Shown here in pieces: positions 173 through 34,721 of a stretch of DNA of 64,000 nucleotides. The stretch's first letter is position 1. Each line of letters begins with the position of its first letter. The stretch lies in IMG/VR virus record IMGVR_UViG_3300024999_000092; one strand, written 5' to 3'. Position numbers and translations under genes: made by a program. The notes below the pieces were generated by a model. That model was given only the letters and a program-made list of their open reading frames with translations, did not search any database and was not told where the DNA came from. The DNA comes from an uncultured virus (IMG/VR IMGVR_UViG_3300024999_000092). Its lineage: Duplodnaviria; Heunggongvirae; Uroviricota; Caudoviricetes.

Positions 173-245
173 ACGTGATGCAGGGTGTCGTAACCACCCA
201 CCGCTGATAAATCCTCCTGGGATTGGCGGGCATCACGTTTTTGTT
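173..245 (+). ncRNA. Candidate three-way-junction small RNA antisense to the lysis-gene leader
   Basis: P1 ACGTGATGC 173-181/GCATCACGT 230-238; P2 GGGTG 183-187/CACCC 195-199; P3 CCGCTGAT 201-208/ATTGGCGG 222-229 (G-U pairs work only on + strand); followed by a T-tract. Confidence 0.6.
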
Positions 246-302
246 TTATCGATGATATCTAATTAATTATACCATATTTGTTGTAATTTTTCTGTAATGG
301 GT

Positions 303-32315: not shown

Positions 32316-32452
32316 CGACTAAACCCCGAAAACAAGCAAAACTTTCCGTTTTCGCCGGTTTTCTTGTGTTTTATGCGGAATAAAATAACTGTTGACTATG
32401 GGTATCCATATATGATAGTATAGTAAAAATAAATTAAGCGGGAGGAATACTA

Positions 32453-32671
32453 ATGAAAATTCAATATATCGGAGAAGTACCTGATAGCGCAAGAACAATA
32501 GTGAAAGGATATATCAGCGATATTCTGAAAGGCACAGAAAATGATAAATTTCTAGTCTGTCCTGAATATACTAAGTCGGATGAATTAACAAACTTCCTAA
32601 AAAACTTCAACGGCGAAGATAATTTAGTTTACGACAATGAAACATGGTATTATATCTACCCTAAAAACTAA
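32453..32671 (+). CDS. Small early hypothetical protein with its own promoter and terminator
   Basis: RBS GGGAGG; hairpin AACCGCC/GGCGGTT plus T-tract follows. Confidence 0.7.
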   Translation: MKIQYIGEVPDSARTIVKGYISDILKGTENDKFLVCPEYTKSDELTNFLKNFNGEDNLVYDNETWYYIYPKN

Positions 32672-32762
32672 CCGCCTAAACATGGCGGTTTTTCTTTTCT
32701 TTAGAGCTGGGTTGCCATATGGGTATCCGTTATAGTATACTATCCCTGGAGGTGATTTTAAA

Positions 32763-32963
32763 ATGTCAGCAAAAAGAAAAGAAAAATATAGAGACGGTTG
32801 GGAAAGTTTCAACCTGCGCCTGTCAACCGAGGATAAAGCAAAACTAGCCGAAATGTCAGCAAATACGCGGGTTCCGGCATCCGAAATAGCTAGAAACGCT
32901 ATCAAAAAAGAACTTGCGGAACTTCAAAAAACGCTGAAAAAGGCAGATACAGCTAGTATCTAG
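32763..32963 (+). CDS. Ribbon-helix-helix repressor of the early island
   Basis: SFNLRLSTEDKAKLAEMSANTRVPASEIARNAIKKEL; flanked by operator copies. Confidence 0.8.
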   Translation: MSAKRKEKYRDGWESFNLRLSTEDKAKLAEMSANTRVPASEIARNAIKKELAELQKTLKKADTASI

Positions 32964-33108
32964 TAGGCATGTTAAGCTGGATACCCATAGATAGCTGAAT
33001 ATAAGGTTATTTGAGGCTTTACGGCATGGGTATCCATAAGCTATACTAAGCACATGGAACACAACAACAAAATAACAAACGCCCACAGAGGCGAAGGAGG
33101 ATAATAAA

Positions 33109-33507
33109 ATGACAATGACAATTCAAAACTTCATCGAGCAGAATAAAATTAAAATGTCCTGCGAGTATGCAGACAGCAACCCAAACATGGCAGACTCCGC
33201 AAACATGAACCATTATAAGTGTCAACTTCGCAGAAGCGGAAAGCAACTAACAATTAACTTTTCACAGGGTTATGGAATATCAGGAGATCCGGAAGTTGAA
33301 TCAGTATTAAGTTGCTTGGCATCAGATTCAATAGGGGTAGAAAATGCAGGAAATTTTGAGGACTGGGCGCAGGAATACGGATACGACACAGACAACAGGA
33401 AGGCAGAAAAAATATATAAAGTGTGCGAAAGACAGTCGCAAAAATTAAAGAATTTCCTTGGAGAAGAATTATACGGTAAATTATTATGGGAAACCGAGCA
33501 ATACTAA
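33109..33507 (+). CDS. Early hypothetical protein
   Basis: RBS AAGGAGG; FEDWAQEYGYDTDNRKAEKIY motif. Confidence 0.75.
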   Translation: MTMTIQNFIEQNKIKMSCEYADSNPNMADSANMNHYKCQLRRSGKQLTINFSQGYGISGDPEVESVLSCLASDSIGVENAGNFEDWAQEYGYDTDNRKAEKIYKVCERQSQKLKNFLGEELYGKLLWETEQY

Positions 33508-33562
33508 CCCACCTGACGAGTGCCGGACGGTAACCGGTCGAATCCCCGAAAGGGGAAGTGGG
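33508..33562 (+). ncRNA. Type I hammerhead ribozyme fold (variant core)
   Basis: Stem I CCCAC 33508-12/GTGGG 33558-62; core CTGACGA 33513-19; stem II 33520-39; GAA 33540-42; stem III TCCCC-GAAA-GGGGA 33543-56; single unpaired A33557. Confidence 0.75.
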
Positions 33563-33593
33563 AAACCAAACTAAATACGAGGAGGATGCACAC

Positions 33594-33749
33594 ATGAAAT
33601 ATCAAGGATTAGTAGTTGACAGTTTAAAGTCACTGGATACCAAAAAAACCAAATCTTACGACACCTACAAAGAGGCACACGATGCAGCCGAAAAACTCTG
33701 TAAGCGCACGATGGGAGATAGAGGTAAGGTCGAAGTCGAAACCCGCTAA
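33594..33749 (+). CDS. Small early hypothetical protein (51 aa)
   Basis: Start moved to MKYQ at 33594 with RBS GAGGAGG. Confidence 0.65.
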   Translation: MKYQGLVVDSLKSLDTKKTKSYDTYKEAHDAAEKLCKRTMGDRGKVEVETR

Positions 33750-33940
33750 GTCTACTCCGTGAAGGCCGGAGCAGGAGGCCAAAAACCTCCTGACAGTTCA
33801 AGGGTTATCATTAGACCCAGCGCACCGACAGCAACAAACTACCAACAGAATACGAAAAACCCCACAGCGCAACCCGGTGAAGTCTGCATGATGCGGATCA
33901 AAGGGAGCGAACACTGGATACGAGGCTAACGGTGCTAGAT
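33750..33940 (+). ncRNA. Candidate ~190-nt multi-stem structured RNA
   Basis: Intergenic; nested helices GTCTA/TAGAT, CTCCG/CGGAG, CAGGAGG/CCTCCTG, GGGTT/GACCC, GCACCG/CGGTGC, CCGGTG/CACTGG, TCTGCA/TGCGGA. Confidence 0.55.
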
Positions 33941-34026
33941 ATGCAGAAAAGGGGAAGTTTAGGTTTTATCCAAACGCCTTCGATAGAGGGAATTTCGATA
34001 AAACTTAAACAAAGGAGATTGATAAC

Positions 34027-34311
34027 ATGAAAAACATGACAGTTAGAGAATTATTACCGACCATTGGGATCATAGAAAGCGTTATCGATGAAGTTATCGG
34101 AAACCTTGAAATGTCAGTATCGAGAGGTTACGACATCAAATCCAGAGGAATCAGAACAGATAATAAAGTCCAAGTAGTAACGGTTTCACCGAATGTAAAA
34201 TGGACAGATGGAACCTGCAGACCAGCTTATGGCGGTAGGGAATACGAGGTAACGATTTACCTAAACAAATTAACAGATGTAAATTTAAGGAGGGTTTTTG
34301 ATTTACAGTAG
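34027..34311 (+). CDS. Early hypothetical protein
   Basis: RBS AAAGGAG directly after a long hairpin. Confidence 0.7.
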   Translation: MKNMTVRELLPTIGIIESVIDEVIGNLEMSVSRGYDIKSRGIRTDNKVQVVTVSPNVKWTDGTCRPAYGGREYEVTIYLNKLTDVNLRRVFDLQ

Positions 34312-34378
34312 AACCTTTTTAGGTTTTACCTCTGCATCCTGCCGGGTGTGGAGTTAAAATCTAAGGAGGATGATAATT

Positions 34379-34639
34379 ATGAATTATGAAAAATTAACAA
34401 AGTTAATGAACGGCGAAACTGTTAAAGTTGGTAAGAAAAATAATCAAATATACCTCGATAAAGCAACAGACTTGTTTGTAGTTGAAATGTATGAGTTTAC
34501 AAGTGATTTGGAAGGTGAGATGTTTAGTATTGGTGATAGTTTTGAAAACATTGAAGTTGCCGTAGCAGTAGCCACTAGATATACATGCGAGACTTATAAC
34601 TATGAGGTACAGCAAAGATTATTAAAACAGTTTGCATAA
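34379..34639 (+). CDS. Early acidic hypothetical protein
   Basis: RBS AAGGAGG directly after a long hairpin. Confidence 0.7.
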   Translation: MNYEKLTKLMNGETVKVGKKNNQIYLDKATDLFVVEMYEFTSDLEGEMFSIGDSFENIEVAVAVATRYTCETYNYEVQQRLLKQFA

Positions 34640-34721
34640 AATAACCATTAGGGACTCCGGTCCCTGCTTCGCCAAAACTCCTTTAGAGAGGGGTTTTGTT
34701 GAGGTAAAGGAGGGGTTAGCC

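Follow-up and report, generated by a model that had tools for sequence, protein, structure and literature searches.

A putative type I hammerhead ribozyme with a swapped U15.1-A16.1 core pair lies between two phage genes and belongs to a large intercistronic family

The window, i.e. the whole stretch of 64,000 nucleotides (64 kb) of an uncultured groundwater Caudoviricetes virus (IMG/VR record IMGVR_UViG_3300024999_000092) analysed here, carries a block of small rightward genes which run opposite in direction to the structural genes. This block includes the ribbon-helix-helix repressor-like gene and the two genes that border the element described below (Table 1), together with further small genes, and the element lies on the same strand as all of them. 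A bidirectional terminator-like hairpin was called after the first rightward gene (32670-32690) and a promoter-like site was found ahead of the ribbon-helix-helix gene (32712-32741, plus strand); the transcript containing the element may begin at these two signals. The upstream gene has 108 protein homologues. In the 130 nt downstream of these homologues, inspected in 147 further loci, the motif is absent except in the window's own phage (L001 and L002; the contigs and loci gathered in this work are numbered with L), and the upstream gene is therefore not linked to the ribozyme. No blastn match to 32400-34700 was found in the phage GenBank collection, and G001, which is 100% identical to the window, is the same phage contig and contributes nothing independent.

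Table 1. Genes and sequence elements at and around the hammerhead motif of the window
Feature	Position	Strand	Remarks
Ribbon-helix-helix repressor-like gene	32763-32963		rightward block
Upstream gene, 132 aa, phrog_4273, weak DUF7438 match	33109..33507	+	ends with TAA 33505-07, abutting stem I
Stem I, 5' strand, CCCAC	33508..33512	+	pairs with 33558-62; R1 alignment; family stem I covariation
Core C3-A9, CUGACGA	33513..33519	+	N7 is C in the window, U in L150
Stem II and loop II	33520..33539	+	sequence reading, R1 alignment
Stem II, 5' strand: G, bulged U, GCCGG	33520-26	+	
Loop II, ACGGUAA	33527-33	+	
Stem II, 3' strand, CCGGUC	33534-39	+	
Core G12 A13 A14 (GAA)	33540..33542	+	sequence reading
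Stem III hairpin, UCCCC-GAAA-GGGGA	33543..33556	+	U15.1 is 33543 and A16.1 is 33556 (swapped pair)
A17	33557..33557	+	predicted cleavage 3' of A17 (33557/33558), deduced from hammerhead numbering
Stem I, 3' strand, GUGGG	33558..33562	+	sequence reading, R1 alignment
3' tail, AAACC	33563..33567	+	ACC 33565-67 pairs with loop II GGU 33529-31 (pseudoknot)
Shine-Dalgarno, GAGGAGGA	33577-84	+	precedes ATG 33594
Downstream gene, 51 aa, no family match	33594 (ATG) to stop 33749	+	

The hammerhead is the best studied of the small ribozymes, and the A15.1-U16.1 pair of its core is treated as nearly invariant. By direct reading of the sequence, every segment of the type I layout was located between 33508 and 33562 on the plus strand, and the segments and topology are present exactly as the initial annotation had written them. 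The core strand C3 U4 G5 A6 N7 G8 A9 and the G12 A13 A14 between stems II and III are both there, and the R1 alignment and the family covariation presented below place three helices around this core in the type I arrangement, in which stem I is open and loops cap stems II and III. A tertiary contact aligning stems I and II is provided by the pseudoknot that loop II forms with the 3' tail. Stem II is composed of G10.1-C11.1, the bulged U33521 and then G.U, C-G, C-G, G-C and G-C pairs. The residue 5' of the scissile bond is an A, i.e. an H17 (not G); the 'NHH rule' is reportedly due to Kore et al. in 1998, as cited in PMC3884650. Positions 15.1 and 16.1, which close stem III, form a Watson-Crick pair whose identity is U-A and not the consensus A-U, and the remaining core is standard, as had been described. 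The placement also agrees with the earlier description, since stem I begins at the base that follows the TAA stop codon and the predicted cut lies 36 nt upstream of the next ATG. The minimum-energy fold of the window motif pairs part of the core (UGAC with GUCG).

A pattern that included the stem III of the window recovered one further IMG/VR contig, L150. A second pattern, in which stem III and position 15.1 were left free (CTGANGAG, 0-2 nt, GCCGG, 5-9 nt, CCGGNCGAA), matched 119 IMG/VR stretches, several contigs having from 3 to 12 copies. Enough flanking sequence was available for 146 of the 148 matches, 141 could be parsed into stems and 124 of these were unique. As this pattern was taken from the core and stem II of the window, the intactness of CUGANGA and GAA and the likeness of stem II are imposed by the search; it placed no constraint on stems I and III, on position 17, on the 15.1-16.1 pair or on the tail. 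Briefly, a family copy comprises, in order, stem I (about 5 bp), CUGAYGA, a G that is often followed by one bulged base, GCCGG, 5-9 nt of loop, CCGGCC, GAA, a stem III hairpin that varies, N17, the 3' side of stem I and a tail such as AAGCC or AAACC. A stop codon lies 0-4 nt before stem I in 68 of the 124 copies (0 nt in the window), and 105 of them have a Shine-Dalgarno and a start codon in the 80 nt downstream, at a median of 34 nt (31 nt in the window). The position between two cistrons to which the initial annotation had drawn attention is thus the family pattern, and the motif belongs to a large phage family of predicted intercistronic type I hammerheads. Many copies per contig are found at successive gene junctions, as in L249 (12), L181 (4), L166, L203, L240 and L246; the 12 pattern matches of L249 are spread over about 6.3 kb; their stems I and II are almost the same, and it is stem III that varies.

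We described the family by a covariance model, named R1, with the hammerhead secondary structure. It was derived from 84 copies with A15.1-U16.1 and a stem III of 12-20 nt, chosen among 111 canonical ones with at least 3 stem III pairs; the window and the U-A copies were excluded from it. Applied to the 64 kb with filters off and on both strands, R1 matched 33505-33572 (+) with 63.6 bits (E-value 2.7e-17), the next-best match in the window being at 11.2 bits (E-value 0.43). R1 was also run over 100 of the 121 pattern loci, after 13 presumed duplicates and L263-L270 had been left out, and yielded 136 family copies at 32.5-80.6 bits. The score of the window lies within this range, and the U-A copies other than the window's reach 57.3-72.3 bits. 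By contrast with R1, Rfam gave no match in the whole window at gathering thresholds and no ribozyme at E <= 5. In a 301-nt search, Hammerhead_1 (RF00163, clan CL00010) scored 12.7 bits with an E-value of 5.5, in a different alignment and below the gathering threshold of 34; the check with the Rfam hammerhead models that had been proposed along with the initial annotation therefore came out negative. RF00163 represents the same ribozyme class and the same permutation (type I) as the window motif, but the model does not capture the phage intercistronic type I family. Indeed, in 20 loci holding canonical copies, Rfam reported no type I family copy at E <= 1, and its only matches were in L150 (a type II hammerhead) and in L155 (a twister-sister). 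Since the canonical siblings also fail RF00163, the Rfam miss reflects the scope of the model and not a defect of the motif, and intercistronic ribozymes are for the same reason under-annotated in phage genomes.

In the comparison among relatives that had been suggested as a check, stems I and III covary strongly. In the family alignment (131 distinct rows), 97.3% of the cells are paired, against 75.5% in shuffled alignments and 26-42% with slid partners, and 13 of the 17 pairs change on both sides, with such changes at all five pairs of stem I and all six pairs of stem III. The contact between the GGU of loop II and the ACC of the tail, anticipated from the window alone, covaries as well: the four proposed pairs of this pseudoknot are paired in 73.8% of the cases, compared with 57.2% after shuffling and 20-42% for slid partners. 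One of them occurs across the family as CG (55), GC (27), UA (26) and AU (3), and the window has the U-A type (U33531-A33565).

The distribution of the 15.1/16.1 combinations among the 124 unique copies is dominated by A-U (112), followed by U-A (7), U/U (2) and one copy each of A/A, A/C and G/A. These last three rows (L201, L232 and L263) look like parse failures or doubtful copies. Concerning the two U/U rows, L191:293-372 (+) has an extra U between GAA and a normal A15.1-U16.1 pair, and L247:728-798 (+), parsed at L247:735, is a real U15.1/U16.1 mismatch in a contig that also contains a canonical copy. On this reading of the two rows, 16.1 is A in seven of the eight true cases in which 15.1 is U, as is characteristic of a compensated pair rather than of decay; the earlier reading of the swap as compensatory is thereby supported. 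The family alignment has AU in 121, UA in 6 and another combination in 1 row at this column, with no G-C or C-G. The seven U-A copies are the window's own (L151) and those of L150, L158, L175, L223 and L218, the latter with two; they have six different sets of stems I and III and come from at least five contigs, and they are not fully independent, the window and L150 being close relatives and L218 holding two. When stem III is disregarded, each U-A copy has canonical copies as its nearest relatives (e.g. L246:1418, 98% identical to L150), with the exception that the window and L150, as well as the two L218 copies, list each other among their top four relatives. This suggests that the swap is scattered through the family, although the 46 compared positions cannot prove independent origins. 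At position 17, the 124 unique copies have C (98), A (21), U (3) or G (2), and A17 is present in five of the seven U-A copies versus 16 of the 112 A-U copies (Fisher p 0.0018, for copies that are not all independent).

The closest U-A relative, L150, differs from the window at only three places inside 33508-33562 (C to U at N7, one base of loop II, and U33538C, by which the stem II G.U becomes G-C), all three being positions at which a hammerhead tolerates change. These differences break the alternative UGAC/GUCG helix of the window, and L150 itself has the hammerhead three-way junction as its minimum-energy fold. The flanking genes of L150 do not align with those of the window; the motif and the following RBS region are kept. 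The canonical siblings L246:1418-1491 (+), L154:264-338 (-) and L214:293-366 (+) are 96-98% identical to the window and L150 outside stem III, and share with them stem I (CCCAC/GUGGG), the core, stem II (GUGCCGG...CCGGCC), loop II (A(C/U)GGUAA), the tail AAACC and the intercistronic placement; they differ in having A15.1-U16.1 and longer stem III hairpins, and at N17 L154 has C, L246 and L214 have A.

The motif also occurs in other contexts, on contigs from groundwater and sediment metagenomes; no RNA run containing the locus was found. The similarity of these contigs to the window starts at 33505-33509 and ends at about 33568 or 33599, with a contig depth of up to about 100 over the motif against 0-5 in the flanks (run X5). 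U33538C recurs in these contigs, and one diverged contig has 8 other letters and 3 gaps relative to the window. No change was listed at 33543, 33556 or 33557 in the metagenome contigs at depths of up to about 100, which is weak evidence for the conservation of these residues. The segment that begins with the tail of the ribozyme, includes the Shine-Dalgarno and reaches the ATG (33563-33596; L150:351-386) is conserved despite differing coding flanks, and ribozyme and RBS seem to move as one cassette.

The novelty of the swap that the initial annotation implied does not hold. In Perreault et al. (2011, PLoS Comput Biol 7:e1002031; PMC3088659), a natural U15.1-A16.1 hammerhead is reported to self-cleave 'albeit less efficiently', with 'low, but detectable' activity, and the weaker cleavage is attributed to the lost contact between A15.1 and G5. 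The same paper describes 15.1/16.1 as the best conserved pair of the hammerhead consensus, at which mutants are at least 10-fold slower. The tested variant, filed under 'marine metagenome' (Figure S6), has the same swap in an otherwise standard core; it differs from the present motif in sequence and source and is one tested example, whereas seven of 124 copies carry the swap here, within one family. Because this natural example was accepted as a hammerhead after it had cleaved, the A15.1-U16.1 consensus is not absolute for the class (PMC3088659). No other paper on a natural U-A hammerhead was found, in a search that most subscription journals lay outside of. The window motif is a genuine hammerhead and a firm member of its phage family, and it adds one more case to a rare core variant that had been reported before; knowledge of the hammerhead class as such is unchanged by it. 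What is new here is the recurrence of the swap in one family, its association with A17 and the fact that Rfam misses the family.

The same article proposes the processing of long transcripts by prophage hammerheads that flank single genes or short gene blocks, and reports that pseudoknots connect stems I and II in hammerheads of each of the three types (PMC3088659). The flanking arrangement that it describes is seen in L150, and the window has one hammerhead only, no second one being found in the 64 kb with R1 or Rfam. In the contig represented by L150, L176 and L271, a canonical type II hammerhead (L150:533-593 (+); RF02276, 44.8 bits for a gathering threshold of 37) follows the U-A type I motif at a distance of about 185 nt, so that a small gene is flanked by two permutations. 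A decayed type II hammerhead after the downstream gene of the window was considered as a counterpart and rejected: there is no Rfam match in 33690-34030, and the shared AGUCGAAACC sits inside coding sequence.

Taken together, we estimate at about three chances in four that 33508-33562 (+) is a functional self-cleaving ribozyme, probably a slower one than its canonical siblings. The RNA would fold into three stems around a standard core, and a 3-bp pseudoknot of the loop II GGU with the tail ACC would hold stems I and II side by side. Self-cutting after A33557 would then occur between the cistrons of a polycistronic transcript; the upstream message would keep the folded ribozyme and end with a 2',3'-cyclic phosphate, and the downstream message would start with a 5'-OH, 36 nt before its ATG, with possible effects on mRNA stability or translation. 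The swapped bases still pair but lose one contact to G5, and slower cutting than in the canonical siblings is expected because of this lost contact. Most likely, the function is to cleave the transcript between cistrons, in the way suggested for prophage hammerheads by Perreault et al. The loss of activity of at least 10-fold at 15.1/16.1 and the low activity of the tested U-A example, both taken from PMC3088659, imply that the rate in vivo could be negligible.

An alternative that we consider unlikely is an inactivated relic. The U-A swap, together with A17, would have abolished useful catalysis, and the element would survive only by virtue of its stable three-way junction, which might for instance protect a 3' end, or as a neutral passenger of a mobile intergenic module. 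The cost of mutating this best conserved pair is in its favour, and so is the travelling of the motif with the downstream RBS region as a module across contexts, as recombination could carry the motif along. Decay would however not be expected to leave an A at 16.1 opposite U15.1 as consistently as is observed, and the six other U-A copies keep stems I and III and the pseudoknot despite sequence divergence. The tolerated nature of the three L150 differences argues in the same direction, and the natural U-A hammerhead of Perreault et al. does cleave.

A role at the DNA level, or a regulatory but non-catalytic one, would make the element a recombination hot-spot at the boundary of mosaic modules, a protein-binding RNA or a transcription terminator. 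The abrupt limits of similarity in the metagenome contigs and the unrelated flanks of L150 indeed place the element at mosaic junctions, but such junctions at shared intergenic elements are compatible with ribozyme function and would even follow from one. Moreover, the motif coincides with no called terminator-like site and is not followed by a U-run, and its pairs covary as in an RNA of the plus strand, the minus-strand fold being unremarkable (z -0.82); a role of this kind is in our opinion very improbable. Many windows were screened, short descriptors do match by chance and the Rfam E-value is poor, which could evoke a fortuitous resemblance to the hammerhead descriptor. Against this stand the R1 E-value, far from that of any other site in the window, a near-identical motif in the different gene context of L150 and more than 100 relatives with covarying stems; the R1 score and the family covariation already rule out a chance match for practical purposes. 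A functional intercistronic hammerhead thus remains our preferred reading.

The window and the six further copies indicate that the swapped pair recurs in nature with its pairing kept and with A17 enriched. A tentative extension of this, which we hold to be possible and nevertheless doubtful, is that U15.1-A16.1 hammerheads, mostly with A17 (a GAA cleavage triplet), could form a recurrent, selected subclass of 'tuned' and not crippled phage ribozymes. By cleaving more slowly, or in a condition-dependent manner, they would control when polycistronic mRNA is processed or in what proportion, and A17 would be preferred as a second-site adjustment that accommodates the swap. The U-A copies constitute a ready natural panel for the cost of the swap and for the question of whether phages purposely use slower ribozymes.

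Two other elements were noticed during this work. In L155, a twister-sister ribozyme (181-252 (-); RF02681, 46 bits for a gathering threshold of 34) lies about 20-90 nt from a canonical type I copy, so that here too self-cleaving ribozymes of different classes are clustered in phage DNA. Finally, an intergenic module of about 85 nt, predicted to form a three-way junction (z -2.4) and without Rfam match, occupies 33740-33825 (+) of the window and begins within the last codons of the 51-aa gene; it shows a raised contig depth in groundwater runs and is 100% identical in three IMG/VR contigs whose flanks have diverged.
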